DNA of 64,000 nt from a virus. Its lineage: Duplodnaviria; Heunggongvirae; Uroviricota; Caudoviricetes; Demerecviridae. The position numbers were made by a program, and so were the translations under genes. The stretch is from positions 48,928 to 112,927 of the IMG/VR virus record IMGVR_UViG_2974620381_000001; one strand, 5' to 3'. Shown piece by piece: positions 7,980 through 64,000 of this stretch (the stretch's first letter is position 1; each line of letters starts with the position of its first letter). Under the pieces are notes generated by a model, which saw only the letters and a program-made list of their open reading frames with translations, did no database searches and was not told the DNA's origin.

Positions 7980-8652
7980 GTTTCAAGGCAGCCTTAACAG
8001 CTTCGTTAATCAACGTAATAACTTCTTCACGAGTCCACTTATACCCTAGAGATTTTACATCAACCCCTAGCTTTTCCAGATGTTTAACAGAAGCCAACTC
8101 ATAATTCATATAATGAACGTTCTGTTGTTTGCCTTCTGATAGAAGCCATACACGGTAACAACCAACAGGGTTATCCATTGCTTTTTTGATTTCACCGATA
8201 CACTGGTATCCAGGAACCCAAACAAGCTCACCTACCTCAAATTCTTCTGCTACAGCATCATCAGGAATAATTGGTGGGTTCAATGGGTCTACAATATCGT
8301 TCAAACGAAGCAGAGCACCATAGCGTTCCAGAACAGATTTAACCATTGCTACAGAGCGGTAATTACGATCGGCAATCTCTTCAAAAGAATCACCAGATAG
8401 ATACTGCTCAATAACGTTGGCTAACTCAATGCCTTCAATGAGTGTGCCACGTTTCTTTTTCTTCATTTCGGCAACTTGAATCTGGCGGTCTTGCCATTCT
8501 TCAATCATCCTTTCCATAGTTGGGTTGGATGATACCCCGAGCATTTCACATGCTGCTTTCTTAGTACCACCGTTCTCCAGATGCTCTATAACCTTTTTAA
8601 AGACTTCATCAGGGATTTCATGGATATGTTTCTTTCTGCGAGAACCAGCCAT
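7948..8652 (-). CDS. HTH DNA-binding protein (putative transcription regulator)
   Basis: 234 aa; N-terminal helix-turn-helix GGTKKAACEMLGVSSNPTMERMIEEW. Confidence 0.5.
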   Translation of the reverse strand: MAGSRRKKHIHEIPDEVFKKVIEHLENGGTKKAACEMLGVSSNPTMERMIEEWQDRQIQVAEMKKKKRGTLIEGIELANVIEQYLSGDSFEEIADRNYRSVAMVKSVLERYGALLRLNDIVDPLNPPIIPDDAVAEEFEVGELVWVPGYQCIGEIKKAMDNPVGCYRVWLLSEGKQQNVHYMNYELASVKHLEKLGVDVKSLGYKWTREEVITLINEAVKAALKLDKEKGKRRE

Positions 8653-8720: not shown

Positions 8721-8963
8721 TTACGATTCCTTGAGCAAAGAAGCAAGTTCAGCATAGACTTTATCTAACTCAAAGCCGATGCGAAGAGACACGTTTGTTT
8801 TCCGTTGTTTAAGTAACCACTCGGATATGTTAGGGATGCCAGCTAATCTGTGTGGTACCACCCTACATAGCTTTTCCGAAGTGTCGTAAACAGGAATTTT
8901 ACGTTCTTTTACTGGAAACTTCCTTGTTTCCCATTTTTTATTCTTCACTGTCATTTCTAGCAC
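8721..8963 (-). CDS. hypothetical protein
   Basis: 80-aa ORF. Confidence 0.4.
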   Translation of the reverse strand: MLEMTVKNKKWETRKFPVKERKIPVYDTSEKLCRVVPHRLAGIPNISEWLLKQRKTNVSLRIGFELDKVYAELASLLKES

Positions 8964-11592
8964 CTAGCTCTGACATTGCTTCATCATGCATATGTTTTTC
9001 CTCGTCAGTCATGAACTTATAAGGAATTGGCATACACTCGATTTTACAATAGGTTCTGTACCAGTCTACAATATTTTCAGTGTTCATATCCTTACCAATA
9101 CCCATCATACCAAGATACATTCTAGCATATTTTGGGTTAGCACTCTGACCTGTTTTAAGGAAGAAGTCTTTCTTCTTACCTTTCAGAGCCTCTATGAATG
9201 GTTTAATGGTCACATTTGAACACTTCTTAATATCTTCCCAGAACATCTCGTGCATTTTATGGAAGAATGCAGCTCGATCATTCGGTTTATCCTTAATATA
9301 CTGTTCAACATGCTCAACTGTTACATCTTTAATAGACTCAAGATGATAATAACGAACAAGAAGTAGTTTAGCTTCATACGCATCCGCATGACGTGGAGCA
9401 CAATAATCCGGAGTTGAATGTAGAATAGCTTTAATTCGCTCTTCTGTGTACTCTTTACCAGCACCTTCAATAGTTCCCCAGCTTTCGCTGAAAATATCAA
9501 TAGTTGCACCCTGATCAAGCAAGTAATAACGTAAAGTACTAGTATAGTTTCTAGATTCCAACTCTCTACGACGTGCGTATAATTGCTGTGCTAACTCCAG
9601 CCAACCTTCATCAATATTATATTGTTCAGAACCTGCGGAGAATCCACTAGTGGATTTATCAATAAAATAATAGATATTTTGAGCACCACGGTCGCGCCTG
9701 ATTGCTTGGAAACGCATGTTTGGCGCTTGATTACTGGTTCTAGTAATAACAAATACATTATCGAAATAGTTAAAGTCAACACCACTCGTTACGGATGGGC
9801 TACATAATAAGCAATCAATTTGTTGATCAATTAGCTCATTAGTTGTATAATCCAGAATACGTCGAATATCCACATCTGAGGTAGAGTTTGAATGGATTTC
9901 CTTAACTAACGCACCCGTATTACGACGCAGTGCCATACCCTTCTCATTCAGCTCATCAGGACCACAATCAGATACTAGAATAGATTTCTCACCCATCTCT
10001 AGAGAAGTCTGAAGTGCAACCCAAATACTGGATTCATCAGGGAACTCATAAGCATGAGCTTTTGACAGCATCTTACGATGATGATTATAAAATGCGACAG
10101 GTTTATCAAACTCAATCAAAGAACCATATGCTTCAATTGTTTCTGCACTAATATCACCATCAGATAATATAATTATTTTCGCAGTTGCAAGAATATCCCG
10201 AAGAACCTGAATACATTCGCGACGTTGCTTAACAACCGGGGCGAATAATAGGTCATTCATTACTGCATCACATTCATCGATAAAGATTGCATCAATTTGA
10301 CCAATAAAACTCTTGAATTTATGCAAAGAGTGAATAGTTGTGGACATACGGTCAATAGCACCGCGCTTAAAATTAAGCATATCTACAGACTTATCATATT
10401 GTCCTGCACTAAATTTCTTAGCATTTGAAGATACCAGTGCTCGAGTATTGGTAATTGCTAAGAAATTACCCTTAATAACTCCCGAATCTAACCAACGCAC
10501 AACCGCCGTAGTTTTACCTGTACCTAGACTTGCTTTTACAAAAGTCATATAACCTTCTGGTGGTACAGTATTTAATTTCAAGAAGTTATCAGTCTCTAGA
10601 GAGTTAGTTTCTAGCTTTTTAAGTGGAATACCTTTTAAAACATCCGGTATATCACGTTTAGAATTATTAACAAACGCTTTCAGAGCCTGCTTACGACCGT
10701 TGTTAAAGTAGTCTTGAATATTACGACTATTATCTTTAGTTGCAATATACTCTGATAAGGCTGGGCGGATTTCTTTTTCTAGCCATGCAAAATCAACACC
10801 ATCCTCTAAAGCCCTGTGATAGAGTTTAGGAATAATACGTAGATACACTCCATCCTCAGCTTCTTCTAGTTCGCTGATAGTTTCCTCTACTTTATCAGAG
10901 GCAGCCTTTTTACCTTTAATTTGATCGAGTAAGGAGTAAAATTCCTCTTTAAACTCTCCTCTAGTTGTTTCATAGTCAACTAGATTATTAGGTAAATTTA
11001 CCTTCGAACCTTTAACAAATACCAGACGTGAAGCACCCTCCGCCTTAAACGGATCGACTATACCATCAGTAAATAAAGGATCAGCAAAGTAATGGAGCTG
11101 TACGGAAGAGTAATAAGCTAAGTCGGCAATATCAAAGCCATACTTTTGTCTACTACTTTCGTTGATAGATGTAAATAAGAACTTGATTTGACCCTGAGTT
11201 ACTTTAACATTAGATTCTAGTATTAAGTGCATTCGGATACCTGGTTTTAGGCCAGCCGAAGATGATGCATGAGCGATAAACCCTGCATCAAGAGGAAACA
11301 TATCCTCACTAATACTATTTAACATTCTAATAATATGTCGAGCCATGCCAACAAGATCAAACTTGTTACAACCACCTGTATCTACAATACCATCCACGTC
11401 CATTGCAATTATATGACTTGGGTTAGATACATTAAAGTTGCCCTTCTTACGTCGCACATTATTTTTAGGTGCAAGACATCGACCTCGTACCGCAACGATA
11501 TGAGGGTCAGACGTTAAACGTCTCATAAGAGGGAGCATTTCTACTAGGGTTTGAGGATCAACTTCATCAATTACATCAAACTTGAAGGGCAT
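8938..11592 (-). CDS. SF2 helicase with N-terminal primase-polymerase-like region; putative replication origin-binding protein
   Basis: Walker A SLGTGKTTAV, Walker B/DExx FIDECD, N-terminal AMDVDG acidic motif; in-frame ORF extends upstream to 11925 but first ~110 codons atypical, so start set at MPFKFDV (complement 11590-11592). Confidence 0.6.
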   Translation of the reverse strand: MPFKFDVIDEVDPQTLVEMLPLMRRLTSDPHIVAVRGRCLAPKNNVRRKKGNFNVSNPSHIIAMDVDGIVDTGGCNKFDLVGMARHIIRMLNSISEDMFPLDAGFIAHASSSAGLKPGIRMHLILESNVKVTQGQIKFLFTSINESSRQKYGFDIADLAYYSSVQLHYFADPLFTDGIVDPFKAEGASRLVFVKGSKVNLPNNLVDYETTRGEFKEEFYSLLDQIKGKKAASDKVEETISELEEAEDGVYLRIIPKLYHRALEDGVDFAWLEKEIRPALSEYIATKDNSRNIQDYFNNGRKQALKAFVNNSKRDIPDVLKGIPLKKLETNSLETDNFLKLNTVPPEGYMTFVKASLGTGKTTAVVRWLDSGVIKGNFLAITNTRALVSSNAKKFSAGQYDKSVDMLNFKRGAIDRMSTTIHSLHKFKSFIGQIDAIFIDECDAVMNDLLFAPVVKQRRECIQVLRDILATAKIIILSDGDISAETIEAYGSLIEFDKPVAFYNHHRKMLSKAHAYEFPDESSIWVALQTSLEMGEKSILVSDCGPDELNEKGMALRRNTGALVKEIHSNSTSDVDIRRILDYTTNELIDQQIDCLLCSPSVTSGVDFNYFDNVFVITRTSNQAPNMRFQAIRRDRGAQNIYYFIDKSTSGFSAGSEQYNIDEGWLELAQQLYARRRELESRNYTSTLRYYLLDQGATIDIFSESWGTIEGAGKEYTEERIKAILHSTPDYCAPRHADAYEAKLLLVRYYHLESIKDVTVEHVEQYIKDKPNDRAAFFHKMHEMFWEDIKKCSNVTIKPFIEALKGKKKDFFLKTGQSANPKYARMYLGMMGIGKDMNTENIVDWYRTYCKIECMPIPYKFMTDEEKHMHDEAMSELGARNDSEE

Positions 11593-12194
11593 TGAAGCTG
11601 GTTTACCTTCAGGATGCTTTGAGGAAAATCTTTTAGCAAAAAGATAGTCTTCTGCTTTAACTTCTCGCCAATTGCCTGTGGCTAAATCGCGATGAAATCC
11701 TGCATGACCTTGTAGGATTGAAAACACAACAATACTCCTGTGTTGGAAATGAAATAAGTTTTCTTTAGGACTATTCAGAAAGAATAGAACAACTGTTACT
11801 GTCAATTTCTCAACAATTAATCGCAAATACTGAAGGGGGGTGGCAACTTCCCCTTTCACGCTACACTGCCGCTTCACTATACCGCACAAATCCTTGAGGA
11901 TGGCCGCTAAGCCAGATTTGCTCACCTAATGCTTCATGTACTAGCTCATACTAGATGTAGTATACCTTACGTCATCACTTCTCAGAGTTTTTCACTCTTC
12001 CCGTCTCACTTCACAACCACCTCACACTAGGTTGCTTCGAGGCCTTACCAGGGTTCCTACGGGATGTAGATCGCTAAGTATTCTATTAACTATTTGTTTA
12101 AAAACTAACACGTAACAGTTAAAACAACCCTTAATGGGGCAGCCTAACTGTTCCGTATCGCGGATTGTAAACAAGAAAAATTAGCAAAATCAAT

Positions 12195-42155: not shown

Positions 42156-42384
42156 TGCTTTAATTAGTGAAATTATGTTAACACGTCTTGCAGAACTGCA
42201 AACTCTTCGAGATGAATCTCAGAATAACTTATCCTACCATAAACAGATGGTAGATACTCTTACTACTCGTATTGAAACTTACGAGCGTGATATTGCAGCA
42301 TTACAAGCTCTTTTCTCTGTATCAGCACCAGATACACTAGAACAGCCTGTCGTATCTCAGCCGGTAGAAACAGCATCTAGTTAA
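42148..42384 (+). CDS. hypothetical coiled-coil protein
   Basis: 78-aa ORF overlapping previous stop. Confidence 0.4.
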   Translation: MSNALISEIMLTRLAELQTLRDESQNNLSYHKQMVDTLTTRIETYERDIAALQALFSVSAPDTLEQPVVSQPVETASS

Positions 42385-48622: not shown

Positions 48623-49374
48623 TGTCAGTATTAGTCGGTTTACATGGTGAAGCTGGTTCGGGAAAAGATACCGTTGCAAAATTAATTATCGATTGGTGTA
48701 ATGACACGTATCCAACGTGTTTATCCAGTCGTTATAGTTTTGCTAAGCCCGTTTATGAACTTGCATCCGTAATCCTCGGTGTAACTCCAGAGTTTCTAGG
48801 AGAGCGCAGAGGAAAAGAGATTGACCAATGGTTTACGGTCACACAATCTCAATTGGAGCGAGCCAGAGATGTGTGGTTTAAGTACGGTATCGATAAGTTT
48901 GAAGACTTCTCGTACGTTTGGCCTATTTTTGAGGAAAAATATCTTAATCCTCAACAACTTATCTCAGAGAATAAAGAAGACGGACTTTATAGTTTATTTA
49001 TTTCTCCGAGAAAAATGTTACAGCTCGTAGGGACAGAGCTAGGAAGGCAGCTGGTGCATGAACGCATTTGGCTCATAATTCTGGAGCAATCCATCGCTAA
49101 AGACGACCCAGATGTCGCCGTAATAACAGATGTTAGATTCCCCAATGAAGGAGAGTTACTCAGAGAAACAAATCATTTAGATATGGATTCTTTGATAGTA
49201 AATGTAGTACCCGCTGAGCAGAAGTTCACTATTAAATCAGATCATCCATCTGAAAGTGGTATTCCTGCAAAATATATTACTCACGAATTAGTTAATAAAT
49301 TCGATGGTATCAATAACCTTAAACTAGAAGTTTATAACTTCTGTGACTTAGAGCTAGAACCACTAGTTGGATAA
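48622..49374 (+). CDS. deoxynucleoside monophosphate kinase
   Basis: 250 aa; N-terminal P-loop GLHGEAGSGKDT like T4 gp1 dNMP kinase. Confidence 0.6.
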   Translation: MSVLVGLHGEAGSGKDTVAKLIIDWCNDTYPTCLSSRYSFAKPVYELASVILGVTPEFLGERRGKEIDQWFTVTQSQLERARDVWFKYGIDKFEDFSYVWPIFEEKYLNPQQLISENKEDGLYSLFISPRKMLQLVGTELGRQLVHERIWLIILEQSIAKDDPDVAVITDVRFPNEGELLRETNHLDMDSLIVNVVPAEQKFTIKSDHPSESGIPAKYITHELVNKFDGINNLKLEVYNFCDLELEPLVG

Positions 49375-58799: not shown

Positions 58800-58984
58800 T
58801 GGAAACTCTTTTTCTTTTAATGCTCGTAGGTTCGTTAGTAGTTATATTAGCACTTCTACTAATCTGCAATATTCTTAATAATAAGAATTTAGAGTTAAAG
58901 TGTGAGAACCAAATCCTTAATCGTGAACTTAAACAATATAACCTAGCAGCGCACAAGCTACTAGACAAATTGGAGAATAAGTAA
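58799..58984 (+). CDS. small membrane protein
   Basis: 61 aa, N-terminal TM + coiled coil. Confidence 0.35.
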   Translation: METLFLLMLVGSLVVILALLLICNILNNKNLELKCENQILNRELKQYNLAAHKLLDKLENK

Positions 58985-59589
58985 TGACTTTATATGCACA
59001 ACAACCTGTTCAAGTAGTACCAGACCATGAGTTAAATACATGGGATTATGATTTTAAAGACTTAACTGCCACTGTACAGTTCAAATCTATGAAATTAACC
59101 TTTGCACACACTGATATTAAAGCCTGTAAAGATCTTGAGCATAAATTAAAAGAAGCTCGTAAGATTTTTGGAAAAGCCCGTATCCCCGCTGATAATCTAA
59201 TTAATACATTAATCGATGCTGGTTATAAACTCGTGAAGACTGAGGTGAACCGTCCTAGTACTCCTGTGACTGTTGGAGGTTCCTGGACCAAAAGTGGTAT
59301 CGCATTTAATCCTAAAATAACGTCGGAAATGCACAATGTTCCATGTGGTGGCACTATAGAAAATAGTTCCACATATCGAGTTGGTGAAGATTATGGGCCT
59401 TCTGTACAGCTGAAACATACCCAAGAAGCTTTTGAATCTGATATGAAAAGCGTAGCGCCTGCGGATGCTGAAGGTTTTAAAAGTCCCATCTATGTTACTC
59501 ACTTTAATAATCTTAGACCTGGGAGTATAAATGATGCTATTCTTGAAGCGTTGGGAGCTGCTCTTAATGAAGATAAAAGAGGTAATTAA
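58984..59589 (+). CDS. hypothetical protein
   Basis: 201-aa ORF. Confidence 0.5.
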   Translation: MTLYAQQPVQVVPDHELNTWDYDFKDLTATVQFKSMKLTFAHTDIKACKDLEHKLKEARKIFGKARIPADNLINTLIDAGYKLVKTEVNRPSTPVTVGGSWTKSGIAFNPKITSEMHNVPCGGTIENSSTYRVGEDYGPSVQLKHTQEAFESDMKSVAPADAEGFKSPIYVTHFNNLRPGSINDAILEALGAALNEDKRGN

Positions 59590-59936: not shown

Positions 59937-60646
59937 TTAAAGAAGCCGAAAAATTAAAACGTCTCATTCAGTTAGCGCGTGGTGCTACACAAAAGAGCCT
60001 TTCTCAGCTAACTGATGAAGAAAAATATGCAGTAATGTTTTTAGGAGATCATTATCCTGCTAAGTGGGATAAAGGTAAGATCAAATATGATCGTGATGCA
60101 AAACGAGTAGTTTGGTCAGGCTCATATGTGGAGGTGAATAAAGCGTTGAAAGCTTTAGATCCTGAAGCAAAGGGTTTCTCTTCTAATGCTATTCATATTC
60201 TAATCGATGAAGATCTCCCAAGATTTAAGGAAGCATCATTTAAAGAAGCATTAGCTAGCGAAGATCTTATCCCTTTCAAACATGGCAAATATGCCCACCT
60301 TCCTCCACTAGAAAAAGAGAAACCAACTCTAGTTAAAGATGAAGTTTATCGTGGGATTGGCACGATGTTAGCGAGTTTGACTGTAGCTCTCCATAAAGAT
60401 CTAGAGTTAACGCCCTTAGAAAATGCTGTGCATTTCATGTGTCATAAATACGAAGATACATTTAAAGAGCTATGTAAGTCGCTAGGAATGCCAAGTTACA
60501 CGATATTAAACTACGCTCCTGAGTATACTAGAGCAGCTCGCGGAACTATGGATTACGATGATACAGGATCCACTGCTTCCTATTTAGCAACTTATATCTA
60601 CTTCGCATCCTTAGGTATCAAACTCAAATCCAAGAAGGAGGAATAA
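59933..60646 (+). CDS. hypothetical protein
   Basis: 237-aa ORF; last gene before the 1.7-kb repeat region. Confidence 0.5.
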   Translation: MIKEAEKLKRLIQLARGATQKSLSQLTDEEKYAVMFLGDHYPAKWDKGKIKYDRDAKRVVWSGSYVEVNKALKALDPEAKGFSSNAIHILIDEDLPRFKEASFKEALASEDLIPFKHGKYAHLPPLEKEKPTLVKDEVYRGIGTMLASLTVALHKDLELTPLENAVHFMCHKYEDTFKELCKSLGMPSYTILNYAPEYTRAARGTMDYDDTGSTASYLATYIYFASLGIKLKSKKEE

Positions 60647-60696
60647 AAGTTAACAAAAAGTTCTTGCATTCTCATACCCAAACATGTTATAATAAT

Positions 60697-60866
60697 CTCA
60701 TAGATTAACAACTACTCTAGTTGATTAACTCTAGGGGCGATGATTATTACACGAATGTCTCGTATAGCTTGCGGCCTAGCAACAGCGGTATGACGGCATG
60801 AGTACTCACGTAATTAATCACGCGCCCCCAGGAGAGACTCTCATGAAATTGGGGGTCTCTTTTTCT
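60697..60866 (+). ncRNA. candidate small RNA (promoter-to-terminator unit, ~170 nt, no ORF)
   Basis: Promoter TTGCAT-18-TATAAT (60664-60693); downstream GC hairpin (CCCCCAGGAGAGAC...GGGGGTCTCT) plus TTTTTCTTTAT at 60815-60866. Confidence 0.4.
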
Positions 60867-61020
60867 TTATATTATTTAAATATTTTTAATGGCAATATCT
60901 GTGTTCAAGATGATACACCTGTTGCCGTTCATCTGCTAGGATGGCACAACACTTTCTTCTAGACTCCTAAGTTTCTAGGAATAGTTGAGCACAAATTCTA
61001 GAGATCACACTAAAATATTC

Positions 61021-61757
61021 ATCGGATTTGCACATATTCTAGGGCAGTTTTCTTCTCATATTATATTCTTTAGGCCGGTTTTCCTATATAGGGCGGTTTT
61101 AGGGAGGGCGGTTATTTCTAGAAGACATTTTTCGAAAACACATTTCCAGAAATTACTGTCGGATTTGCACACTGATATTCTAGAAATTTATGGTCGGATT
61201 TGCACAAACGCCTAAGTTTTTAGGAACTCTTACTCTCCTGAAAATAGCAGCATTATTTCGGGCCGAAGGCCCATGATTGCCTGAGTTTTTAGAGCCACAG
61301 AAATTTTCACTTGTCAAGCTATTTTGCCCCATTTTGCTAATAAAATTTTACTTTATCTGCACCTATCCCAAATCTTCCCAAATTATCTCAACTCTTCCCC
61401 AAAATCCCCGCAAATCAGGTGCTCCGCACCAAACATGCGCCCCATCCTTCTAGCCCCCAAATTTCTCTCGCTCTCTCATCTTCTCCTCAAACCCACACAA
61501 TCACACACCCTCCAATCGAAGTCACAAAAATCTTGTCGGATTCGCACAAATAAACTCATGTCGGATCTGCTCATACTCTAGCTAATTCCACAGGATTGAT
61601 GCGCAGCATCGGATTGCTGGAGTTTTTAGGAAAATTCATTGTCGGATTTGCACACTATAAAAATTTTTCGGGTCGGATTTGCACACTACCAAAAATTGTC
61701 GGATTCGCACATACATGCCCGCACGTAACACCCGTGGAGCAATGTCGGATTTGCACA
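61021..61757. repeat. nine dispersed 14-bp iterons GTCGGATTTGCACA (two with 1-2 mismatches)
   Basis: Copies at 61021, 61158, 61193, 61535, 61560 (degenerate), 61641, 61672, 61698, 61744; all same orientation. Confidence 0.8.
61360..61530 (+). other. G-poor polypyrimidine (C/T/A) tract of ~170 nt
   Basis: Plus strand contains almost no G between 61360 and 61530 (ccc/ctc/tcc runs). Confidence 0.7.
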
Positions 61758-61789
61758 AAAGCGCAGGGCAATTGCCCTGCGCTAAATAC

Positions 61790-61990
61790 GAATGATAATA
61801 AGAATCATTCTCATTTAAAAAGCGGAATGAGAATGATAATAATTCGCATTTAGAAAGTGAAATGAGAATCAATCTCATTTAAGAAAGGGAATGAGAACTA
61901 TTCAAAAAGTGAAATGATTATCGGTTAGATAGTGGAATGTGAATGATAATAATTCGCATCTAAGAATGGAAGTGAGAAACACTGTTATTT
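61790..61990. repeat. array of GRAATGAGAA(T) repeats with internal palindromes
   Basis: At least six copies (cGGAATGAGAATg, tGAAATGAGAATc, gGGAATGAGAACt, tGAAATGATTATc, tGGAATGTGAATg, GGAAGTGAGAAAc); perfect palindrome AAATGAGAAT-c-ATTCTCATTT at 62298-62318. Confidence 0.7.
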
Positions 61991-61993
61991 AAG

Positions 61994-62086
61994 TTATCCA
62001 CAGACTTATCAACAGCACGATTTGATTTGACAGAATCCTAGCCATTTTGAAGCGTTATTAACAGACTTATCCACAGCTTATCCTAC
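61994..62086 (+). promoter_or_regulatory. DnaA-box cluster (2 perfect TTATCCACA + 3 one-mismatch variants) embedded in 18-bp direct repeat ACAGACTTATC[CA]ACAGC
   Basis: TTATCCACA at 61994-62002 and 62067-62075; TTATCAACA 62007-62015; TTATTAACA ~62055; TTATCCTAC 62078-62086. Confidence 0.65.
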
Positions 62087-62359
62087 TGTATAAATATACA
62101 GTATTCCTATGCAGTGAATAATTCTAATATACCGCTAAAACGTCCTGAATCGCATTCTAACGCGTTTAATTTTGGTGGGGATACTAAAACAAGGGCAAAA
62201 TTGGAGGAGGCTTAAAAATTAGTTAGCCCGCTAACGATCACACAAGGCGACACGTAACACCCTAATCATTAGCAGGCTAACCATCGCGAGCGCGGTCAAA
62301 TGAGAATCATTCTCATTTGAGAATTGGGGGCACTCCCTGGTAGTTGCGCCCCGTGATTA

Positions 62360-62554
62360 TTAGTCTGGTAGTCGATGCGTGATTTTTTCCTCCTCCCCGT
62401 AGGAATCCACCAAATGCTGATAATAACCATCGTGATCATAAATCACTTTATCATACTCGCCACGCTCGACCGCTTGCCGGTTTTCCGGCGTATCGGGCAC
62501 ATAAAAAACGTCAACCATTGTGGTAGTTTTGGTTACAACAATTTTATTGCTCAT
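62360..62554 (-). CDS. hypothetical protein
   Basis: 64-aa ORF, first gene after the repeat region, opposite orientation to early genes. Confidence 0.4.
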   Translation of the reverse strand: MSNKIVVTKTTTMVDVFYVPDTPENRQAVERGEYDKVIYDHDGYYQHLVDSYGEEEKITHRLPD

Positions 62555-62570
62555 AATAACCCCCGTTATT

Positions 62571-62732
62571 AATTATTTGCGTAAATATACGCTTGCCAAT
62601 AGTCCAGCTAGAAAGCCCGCCGGTACACCAAATGAAGCCACACCGGGAACACTAGCACCATGAGCATATAAAGCCCAGCAAATTACATAAGGCAACAACG
62701 GAAACATGCCAGCTATTAAAAACTTTTTCATT
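62571..62732 (-). CDS. small membrane peptide
   Basis: 53-aa hydrophobic ORF with GGTGG SD. Confidence 0.3.
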
Positions 62733-63087
62733 GCGCCACCTTTCGAAACGCTGTTTCAATACTATCCGCAGTGGATTGAATATACGCGCCTTTCATTATC
62801 AGGCGCTCGGTGCATATCTTGCGGAAAATATTAATAAAATCATCTTCATTTTCTGCAATTAACGCTTCACCCATGACCTGAATATCACAAGATGCGAAAG
62901 TCAAAAATTGAAACGCTAGTTCACGGGCAACGACCGCATTGATTTTATAATGCGCGTTGCCTTCATAAATATTAATAACGCCCTTATAAGCTGGGGAAAG
63001 CTGGTTTAAATAGTTTGCTAATAATGCCGGACGGCAATTAGCAACAAAGCGATTGCCTTCATAAATTATCATTTGCATAGCTCCCAA
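62728..63087 (-). CDS. hypothetical protein
   Basis: 119-aa ORF; start ATG overlaps stop of an upstream 39-aa hydrophobic ORF (63077-63196). Confidence 0.45.
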   Translation of the reverse strand: MGAMQMIIYEGNRFVANCRPALLANYLNQLSPAYKGVINIYEGNAHYKINAVVARELAFQFLTFASCDIQVMGEALIAENEDDFINIFRKICTERLIMKGAYIQSTADSIETAFRKVAQ

Positions 63088-63726
63088 ATAGTTCCGCCGA
63101 TGATCATTAGCTGACTAATAATTATCAGAATAAAACCAATTGAAGGCAGGACGCCCCAAAAACGAAAAGCCGTTTTAATTTGCTGAATCATTTGACAGCC
63201 TCCCGATTAGATAGCCAGATAAAAGCATAAAAATCCCCAGTAAAAGGGGATCATTCTTAAATAGGGTGGCGGTAAAACCGCCCACCATTGCAAGGAGAAT
63301 AACAATAACGCTTTTCATAGTACCCCACGAAACGCAGCGTAAAAGGTGGCAAAATGTTTAACCGTTTCAGCGATCACGTTGCCACGCTTATCAAATTTCT
63401 TTTCTGTAACACGGAAGGCGTTTTTATTCCGCGCTACATAATTCGATTTTACAATCAGGACGCTCAAACGTGTTTACATCCACCAGCTTAAAGCCTTTCG
63501 AACGAGCAAGAGAAACGTTGCGGATCATTTTTATTCTCCTTTACTAGTCATGCAGCCCAGCAGATAAGAAAAAACGGCGATACCCGCGCCGACAATAACG
63601 GCGTGAACACCGAAAGCTATTGCAAACAACGATAAAATAGCGCCCAAGATACCCGCTAAAATAGCTCTAAAAATAACCATTTTCATCCTCCTAGTTAGCG
63701 GGGCGAAAATAACGCCCCGTTATTAA

Positions 63727-63958
63727 TTACATTAAAACAATTTTAGCGGCTTGTTTTTTGGTGCAATGTTCCGCCTTCAGGGTATCCAGCAAAAAGCCAG
63801 CCGTTTGCTGATCGATTTTATCGGCGTTATACAATTCTTGGATGGTATTATAAGTTTTAGCAATGCCGTATTCTTGCACCATTTCGTGAATAATAACGCG
63901 ATTAGATACCCAGCCTTGAGCGGTAAACAGATGACTAGCAGAAGAATAAGCAACCATT
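63727..63958 (-). CDS. hypothetical protein
   Basis: 77 aa from ATG after GGAGGC SD (track start further upstream). Confidence 0.4.
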
Positions 63959-64000
63959 TTAAGCCTCCAAATTTTTGGGAAAATTTTCAACCGCCCTCAA

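Follow-up and report, generated by a model that had tools for sequence, protein, structure and literature searches.

The window analysed here, a stretch of 64,000 nucleotides from the IMG/VR record IMGVR_UViG_2974620381_000001 (Demerecviridae; positions 48,928 to 112,927), carried nine short direct repeats, or iterons, between 61021 and 61757. These repeats were the direct repeat D (DRD) family of phage T5. The array was essentially specific to one locus of the phage genome, had a single orientation, ran across the physical terminus of the long terminal repeat, and kept its core in relatives where the surrounding DNA could no longer be aligned. The repeats are probably binding sites for a phage-encoded protein. 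Among the candidate binders we rank first, and tentatively, a UL9-like origin-binding helicase encoded in the same window, which would make the repeats origin iterons; protein A2 and the small terminase subunit share the next place, and host DnaA follows as an unlikely candidate.

With GTCGGATTTGCACA as the query and up to two mismatches allowed, a motif search of the window returned nine plus-strand copies within 61021-61757. Five of them, starting at 61158, 61193, 61641, 61672, and 61744, were exact. One mismatch was present in the copies at 61021 (ATCGG...), 61535, and 61698, the last two both being the ATTCGCAC variant, and two mismatches in the copy at 61560. The whole window gave 10 matches at this threshold, compared with 0.23 expected, and 0 of 100 shuffles reached 10; the tenth match, at 59322, was located in an open reading frame (ORF). 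An independent repeat finder detected the identical nine-copy family, with start-to-start spacings of 137, 35, 342, 25, 81, 31, 26, and 46 bp and an extended register of AAWTnnnTGTCGGATTTGCACAYW. The core of the iteron was ATTTGCAC, with ATTCGCAC as its recurrent variant; the two together are written ATT(T/C)GCAC. Spacing was irregular, ranging from 25 to 46 bp inside the clusters and from 25 to 342 bp start to start over the whole array. An earlier reading of this DNA (hereafter the original prediction) had described nine copies, and all of them were recovered in their places on the plus strand. Its remark that the array is not CRISPR-like also held, as 14-bp repeats at irregular spacings of 25-342 bp differ from the regular 24-48 bp repeats, with unique spacers of similar length, of clustered regularly interspaced short palindromic repeats (CRISPR).

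The window was 100% identical to Phage NBSal005 (Tequintavirus, Demerecviridae), and 456 T5-like phage records matched it. The phage is T5-like, with A1, A2, and long terminal repeats, and the window is oriented opposite to the T5 reference. In T5 (AY587007.1), 'direct repeat D copy 1-9' are annotated at 9672, 9718, 9744, 9775, 9856, 9881, 10225, 10260, and 10397, respectively. The top-strand DRD sequence of T5 is TGTGCAAATCCGAC, and its opposite strand is GTCGGATTTGCACA. Read in the same direction, the spacings were 46/26/31/81/25/344/35/137 bp in T5 and 46/26/31/81/25/342/35/137 bp in the window. Because the copies match one to one and the spacings correspond, the window array is a known T5 feature; the original prediction did not see that these are the DRD copies of the classical injection-stop region, as AY587007.1 and the literature show. 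The repeats are already catalogued and are not a discovery, and in the T5 literature that we found no function is assigned to them. 'Nine DRD repeats' form one of the three major repeat classes of Repeat Region 3 in the left terminal repeat of T5, a region thought to hold the injection stop signal, and earlier sequencing work is credited for them (Davison 2020, bioRxiv 10.1101/866236). The latest T5 injection model explicitly gives the DRD repeats no role. Further DRD copies annotated in T5 are copy 10 in ORF019 (window 59322) and copies 11 and 12 in exo2/D13.

The whole-genome search that the original prediction had proposed showed a motif essentially confined to one locus rather than a common k-mer. 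In the non-redundant genome of 110,218 bp (one terminal repeat plus the unique DNA), again at up to two mismatches, the only sites for GTCGGATTTGCACA were the nine-copy array, the copy at 59322, and a D13/exo2 pair 15 bp apart, and none was present on the opposite strand. The isolated copy (GTCGGAAATGCACA; 59322-59335, plus strand) lay within ORF 58984-59589 and is the equivalent of T5 DRD copy 10; most of the T5-like loci whose context was complete had a copy at 1.7-2.6 kb on the upstream side of the array. The pair consisted of two near-perfect iterons in the coiled-coil coding region of D13/exo2, outside the window (NBSal005 42252-42280; T5 79019-79048), in the orientation of the array. It lies ~65% of the way along the genome, about 370 bp from the annotated 64.7% nick. 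Around the array itself, NBSal005 has no annotated coding sequence between window positions 60646 and 62360, and the ORFs there are short and overlapping, in agreement with the original prediction, which had noted the lack of coding context.

The array was divided by the end of the terminal repeat. This 10.8-kb repeat begins at window position 61292, which is position 1 of the NBSal005 record (window 61292-64000 is identical to NBSal005 1-2709), and in T5 the homologous base, 10139, is the last of the left terminal repeat. The gap between the clusters is therefore where the terminal repeat physically ends. Three copies were in unique DNA and six inside the repeat, with the boundary between copies 7 and 6 in T5 numbering. 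The two clusters of the original prediction were thus real, and the feature dividing them, which it had missed, is this physical end. Outside the repeat were the equivalents of T5 DRD copies 9 (61021-61034; ATCGGATTTGCACA), 8 (61158-61171), and 7 (61193-61206), all on the plus strand. Copy 9 was the least conserved (0.51 among 24 T5-like sequences), and copies 8 and 7 showed conservation of 0.985 and 1.0, respectively; copy 7 ended 85 bp from the boundary. Inside the repeat, also on the plus strand, copy 6 (61535-61548; GTCGGATTCGCACA, with TTCGCAC) came first, 243 bp from the boundary, followed by copies 5 (61560-61573; degenerate, GTCGGATCTGCTCA), 4 (61641-61654), 3 (61672-61685), 2 (61698-61711; GTCGGATTCGCACA), and 1 (61744-61757). 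The boundary block at 61250-61340 contained the repeat boundary between 61291 and 61292 (...CCTGAGTTTTTA before it and GAGCCACAG... after it), a hairpin (GGGCCGAAGGCCC), and TTGTCAAGC. It was the most conserved part of the region, with identity of 0.94-1.0 among the T5-likes, and the TTGTCAA near the boundary recurred in Ceto, a My1-like phage, and a Klebsiella phage. The boundary between 61291 and 61292 is the physical genome end and the presumed terminase cut site.

On the plus strand, the early genes are followed by a promoter, a structured RNA, and a terminator (60664-60873), then by the three outside iterons and the boundary block. Further on come a G-poor stretch, the six inside iterons, a homologue of the T5 7.9% nick, an AT-rich block, the DnaA-box pairs, and the pre-early genes. 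The G-poor, C/A-rich stretch (61300-61530, plus strand) lies between the clusters, where it makes up the initial ~240 bp of the terminal repeat. As its GC skew is about −0.65, the strand with its 3' end at the genome terminus is G-rich; a comparable stretch or strand asymmetry was present in Ceto, PM135, and the My1-like phage. The homologue of the T5 'major single-stranded nick 1, 7.9%' (61724-61783, plus strand) consists of CGTAAC, 31 nt, and GCGCAGGG, in a perfect palindrome (AGCGCAGGGCAA/TTGCCCTGCGCT), and this nick site is the classical end of the first-step-transfer DNA. Copy 1 lies in its spacer, 3 nt before GCGCAGGG, and an iteron adjoining GCGCAGG was retained in the Klebsiella phage, Ceto, a pVp-1-like phage, L174, and PM135. 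The AT-rich block (61790-61990; GC 29-30%), with GAGAAT...ATTCTC palindromes and repeats (T5 direct repeat C and palindromes E to I), separates the iterons from the DnaA boxes and could act as an unwinding element. The two DnaA-box pairs (61993-62077, plus strand; 3 bp apart), TTATCCACA/TTATCAACA and TTATTAACA/TTATCCACA, are the T5 inverted repeats D' and C', which have been put forward as the candidate injection stop signal (Davison 2020, bioRxiv 10.1101/866236, where the DnaA-box consensus is given as TTWTNCACA).

In a survey of 38 IMG/VR loci flanking A2, the array was nearly always present and on the strand of A2. Seven independent T5-like contig ends began 244-246 bp before the first inside copy. 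Footprinting of 24 T5-like sequences gave 0.91 for the motif columns and 0.83 for the remainder, a weak contrast because the whole non-coding region is conserved in this group. The core TTTGCAC was invariant, always oriented alike with respect to A2 and in a constant place upstream of the DnaA boxes, in the T5-like, Klebsiella, DU_PP_V (Pectobacterium), My1-like, and three Vibrio-phage lineages, and the non-coding DNA around the array was no longer alignable across them. A core kept amid unalignable DNA indicates selection on a binding site. The flanks differed by group, with RTCGG-ATTTGCAC-W in the enteric and Pectobacterium lineages and TAGA/TCAA-WTTTGCAC-CTA in the Vibrio phages; spacings of 27 and 15-17 bp recurred among lineages, and the ATTCGCAC variant was seen in many. 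The array straddled the repeat boundary in all four lineages for which both repeat copies were available, with three copies outside and six inside in T5-like phages, six and five in Klebsiella, three and six in My1-like, and three and about eight in Ceto. A scan of all viral contigs for three successive ATTTGCAC was uninformative, because its matches were a mixture of unrelated contigs, many of them from giant viruses.

The candidate iteron binder is a 928-aa 'replication origin binding protein' (8938-11724, minus strand; PHROG 'replication origin binding'), a UL9-like superfamily 2 (SF2) helicase of a kind encoded family-wide. Residues 389-533 matched Pfam PF02399 (Herpes_ori_bp). The AlphaFold2 model had a predicted local distance difference test score (pLDDT) of 87, and its top four PDB fold matches were all UL9 of herpes simplex virus 1 (HSV-1), with E-values of 1e-15 to 5e-14, compared with 4e-10 or weaker for other SF2 helicases. 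UL9 recognises GTTCGCAC, GCTCGCAC, and GTTCTCAC (PMC12543377). Six to seven of the eight positions of GTTCGCAC agreed with the core ATT(T/C)GCAC, and TTCGCAC was exact in the copies at 61535 and 61698. An N-terminal domain of ~385 residues precedes the UL9-like core of the phage protein. Some database records call the whole protein 'DNA primase C', and in this phage no ATG start was evident at the expected position of the gene.

The arrangement around the array resembles that of an iteron-type origin. All nine of the nine copies are direct repeats on the same strand, and they are followed by the AT-rich block (GC 29%) and the paired consensus DnaA boxes, with a strong promoter nearby. From this architecture and the likeness to UL9 we infer, with low confidence, that the iterons are bound by the helicase and that replication is initiated at this site. 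The helicase would bind the DRD iterons at the junction of terminal repeat and unique DNA, the 200-bp AT-rich block would be the unwinding region, and the paired DnaA boxes would provide the input of host DnaA. Each concatemer unit would then contain one origin; in virion DNA it would be complete at one end, and at the other it would be missing the three outside repeats. A strand bias in recombineering has been read as T5 replication proceeding mainly unidirectionally from one genome end, the direction of the bias not being stated in the text (PMC10055335), and an origin near the terminal repeat fits this better than bidirectional replication from the centre. More than one T5 origin has been reported, and the iterons in D13 and in ORF 58984-59589 could be secondary sites. 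GC skew was tried as a guide to replication direction; it followed gene orientation and was uninformative. A fuller version, in which the helicase sites mark the principal Demerecviridae origin at the terminal-repeat junction and recognition is related to that at oriS through a GTTCGCAC-like core, is slightly less likely still. The original prediction had named a replication initiator or a partition protein as the binder; a genuine iteron-type array in one orientation was confirmed, and the initiator is circumstantially supported.

Several observations weigh against an origin bound by the helicase. No initiator gene is adjacent, the helicase gene lying ~50 kb from the array, unlike in plasmid iteron origins, and the spacing does not follow the regular ~22-bp helical interval but is irregular in the T5-likes (25 to 46 bp within clusters). 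Sequence homology between the helicase and UL9 is limited to helicase subdomain 1A, and a correspondence of the DNA-binding domains is not established; the resemblance to the UL9 box, at 6-7 of 8 nt, is statistically weak. The Proteus phage PM135 has the helicase and no clear array; all that it keeps is the copy next to the nick, together with a few sequences that resemble the core in reversed orientation. The D13 iteron pair was not found in the D13 homologue of the Vibrio phage Ceto, which rules it out as a conserved internal site. Electron-microscopy work places T5 origins near the genome centre, as cited by Davison 2020 (bioRxiv 10.1101/866236). Finally, an origin explains neither the straddling of the boundary nor the start of the array at the 7.9% nick, which functions in DNA entry or packaging fit at least as well.

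One such function is possible at a somewhat lower probability than the origin. A2, with A1, may bind the iterons and restart second-step transfer, either by releasing a block or by ratcheting the DNA inwards, the iterons being the DNA that comes first after the first-step stop. Second-step transfer cannot proceed without A2, a DNA-binding dimer with no known target; a 2026 preprint calls its mechanism unknown. Copy 1 abuts the 7.9% nick, where first-step transfer ends, and this adjacency is kept in several lineages. The single orientation of all copies suits a directional process, and the array runs on into unique DNA, a continuation that exists only in the left-end context. At the pause, however, the iterons would still be outside the cytoplasm. 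The central basic region of A2 (VRSKL...RK.H.V) is conserved family-wide, like the iteron core. Its AlphaFold2 model was all-helical with a weak likeness to tri-helical helix-turn-helix, Myb, and homeodomain folds, but these matches were non-significant (best E 0.88), and no Pfam family matched A2, the small subunit of terminase, or any of the neighbouring ORFs. For a dimer such as A2, the GAGAAT palindromes nearby would be more suitable targets than direct repeats without symmetry, and PM135 has A2 but no clear array.

Recognition by terminase is about as probable as A2 binding. Here the iterons would be putative sites of the small terminase subunit, and the two clusters would flank the cut that makes the right edge of the terminal repeat. 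The boundary fell in the gap between clusters in all four lineages with resolved repeats, and in the seven T5-like contig ends noted above the terminal loci start at 244-246 bp from the first inside copy. The phage encodes a small subunit of terminase, with 46% identity between T5-like phages and Ceto. The boundary block, as the best-conserved part of the region, also agrees with a cut site, but its hairpin, GAGTTTTTA with G directly after the boundary, and TTGTCAA could be the entire recognition site, the nearest iterons being 85 and 243 bp away. The arrangement of clusters and boundary may also be inherited rather than functionally required. The left repeat edge has no iterons, only a conserved ATGAGA...TCTCAT palindrome, and the iteron copies inside genes are left unexplained by terminase.

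The helicase, A2, and the small terminase subunit are three phage proteins that need a cis site and have none assigned, and an array that crosses the terminus of the repeat is as compatible with a role at the DNA end or in DNA entry as it is with replication. A phylogenetic profile was tried as a way of picking the binder. It did not discriminate among the three, because the helicase and A2 occurred family-wide, including in Proteus phages without a clear array; the small terminase subunit was shared at least between T5-like phages and Ceto.

It is unlikely that the DRD copies are medium- or low-affinity boxes for host DnaA that extend the consensus pairs, whether as part of a DnaA injection stop, as in the model of Davison, or of a DnaA-dependent origin. 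The core TTTGCAC corresponds to positions 2-8 of TTWTNCACA. Most DRD copies matched this consensus at 8 of 9 positions, as did ATTTGCACA of the window, and one DU_PP_V copy (TTTTGCACA) matched at 9 of 9. True DnaA boxes lie ~240 bp away, and a conserved host protein would naturally explain a core shared by enteric and Vibrio phages. The details of the iterons argue otherwise. Position 5, which is free ('N') for DnaA, is invariably G, and position 4 changes repeatedly from T to C in many lineages, giving the ATTCGCAC variants; in DnaA boxes no position varies less than this T. Enteric lineages conserve the 5' half, GTCGG, which would be of no use to DnaA. Iteron spacings of 15 to 46 bp are also unlike the DnaA arrays of oriC, where boxes are spaced by 2 bp.

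A plasmid-type partition or handcuffing site, or functionless duplicated DNA, is very improbable. The clustered direct repeats do resemble parC or incA arrays, and the title of PMC13458718 describes UL9-type and Rep proteins as tethering DNA. Neutral DNA, however, is ruled out by the family-wide conservation of the core, and the virulence of the phage makes partition unlikely. No par or rep gene is annotated nearby, and a megablast of 60800-62400 against 72,556 plasmids returned no match; the array is thus not a plasmid-like element.

Several further features were observed around the array. The sequence ending exactly at the genome terminus (GATTGCCTGAGTTTTTA, with G directly after the boundary) belongs to a small repeat family, CCTRAGTTTTTAG, with copies at 61206-61223, 61275-61292, and 61612-61629 and also at 60963-60981; besides the one at the terminus, two further copies stand beside iterons, one immediately following copy 7 and the other 12 nt ahead of copy 4. 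At the opposite edge of the terminal repeat, a conserved GGCGGTAATGAGACTnnTTCTCAT palindrome lies ~20 bp from the end, at 10780-10822 in NBSal005 (L004) and 8260-8301 in Ceto (L044). It is related to the GAGAAT palindromes on the iteron side, and the two phages may share it as an element for recognising the end. Just outside the outer iterons, the segment 60664-60873 comprises a strong extended −10 promoter (TTGCAT, 18 nt, TGtTATAAT), a structured RNA of ~170 nt (minimum free energy −60.7 kcal/mol, z = −6.0), and an intrinsic terminator. A strong promoter with GC-rich self-complementary sequence was also seen by eye at this place in T5, Ceto, and PM135. Neither the array nor the ~170-nt RNA gave a significant Rfam match or an ARAGORN tRNA.

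The four annotated major T5 nicks (AY587007 9661, 22250, 39660, and 78651) share the pattern YGTAAY, 29-31 nt, GCGC(A/G)GG on the nicked strand. The iteron was considered as a determinant of the nick site and rejected; the spacers at the other three major nicks, which have the same pattern, are unrelated, and the iteron is therefore not part of nick recognition. In the window the 7.9% homologue of this pattern spans 61724-61768. A second, unannotated nick-like pattern at 62253-62295 (CGTAAC at 62253, GCGCGG at 62290, 31-nt spacing) may be a minor nick site. The GAGAAT...ATTCTC palindromes (61790-61990 and 62296-62322) resemble Fur boxes (consensus GATAATGATAATCATTATC). With up to five mismatches, four Fur-box-like sites were found in those 550 bp, compared with five in the other 63 kb, and the best, at 61794, had three mismatches (0.03 expected). 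In the Klebsiella, DU_PP_V, and My1-like phages, the same palindromes likewise come after the iterons. FhuA, the entry receptor of T5, is Fur-regulated. In Ceto (L046 6325-6404), the position of the Fur-box-like palindromes is taken by about ten tandem 8-bp units like the MetJ met-box consensus, AGACGTCT. This position may thus have served to recruit different abundant repressors, depending on the host of the phage.

The region bears on three problems of T5, namely how injection stops and restarts, where replication starts, and how the 10-kb terminal repeats are cut. What is new here is the comparative picture, with an invariant TTTGCAC, one orientation, an array straddling the genome end, and a core like the UL9 box. 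It turns a 'complicated repeat region' into testable hypotheses of binding by the helicase, A2, or the small terminase subunit. If the repeats are origin iterons, the 'injection stop' region would double as, or really be, an origin.

Compared with known systems, the array shares features with several and coincides with one. The P1 pac hexamer clusters, SPP1 pacL/pacR, and the R sites of lambda cosB are terminase sites with repeats flanking the cut. They have two short-repeat clusters on either side of a genome-end cut, as DRD does; in DRD the distances are larger (85 and 243 bp), and extra copies lie far from any end. The DnaA-box arrays of oriC share with DRD the 8 of 9 match to the consensus, and true DnaA boxes are adjacent to DRD, whereas DRD has an invariant G at 'N', tolerates C at position 4, carries the GTCGG extension, and is spaced differently. 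The iteron origins (P1 oriR/incA, F, RK2 oriV, and lambda ori) also have several short repeats of the same orientation in more than one cluster, near DnaA boxes and an AT-rich stretch. The DRD array differs from them in having no adjacent initiator gene, in its irregular instead of ~22-bp spacing, and in its interruption by a genome end. The HSV-1 oriS (boxes I-III) is linked to the array by the helicase, whose best structural match is UL9, and by box I, GTTCGCAC, compared with ATT(T/C)GCAC. It consists of two or three inverted boxes around an AT spacer, compared with nine direct repeats in the phage, and its box is read by the C-terminal domain of UL9 (RVKNL motif), for which homology with the phage domain is not established. 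The DRD of T5 itself is the same in motif, in its nine copies, and in its place relative to the terminal-repeat end, the 7.9% nick, and the DnaA boxes; the two differ by point changes, e.g., copy 5 is degenerate in the window and exact in T5, and the copies that carry ATTCGCAC are not the same in the two.

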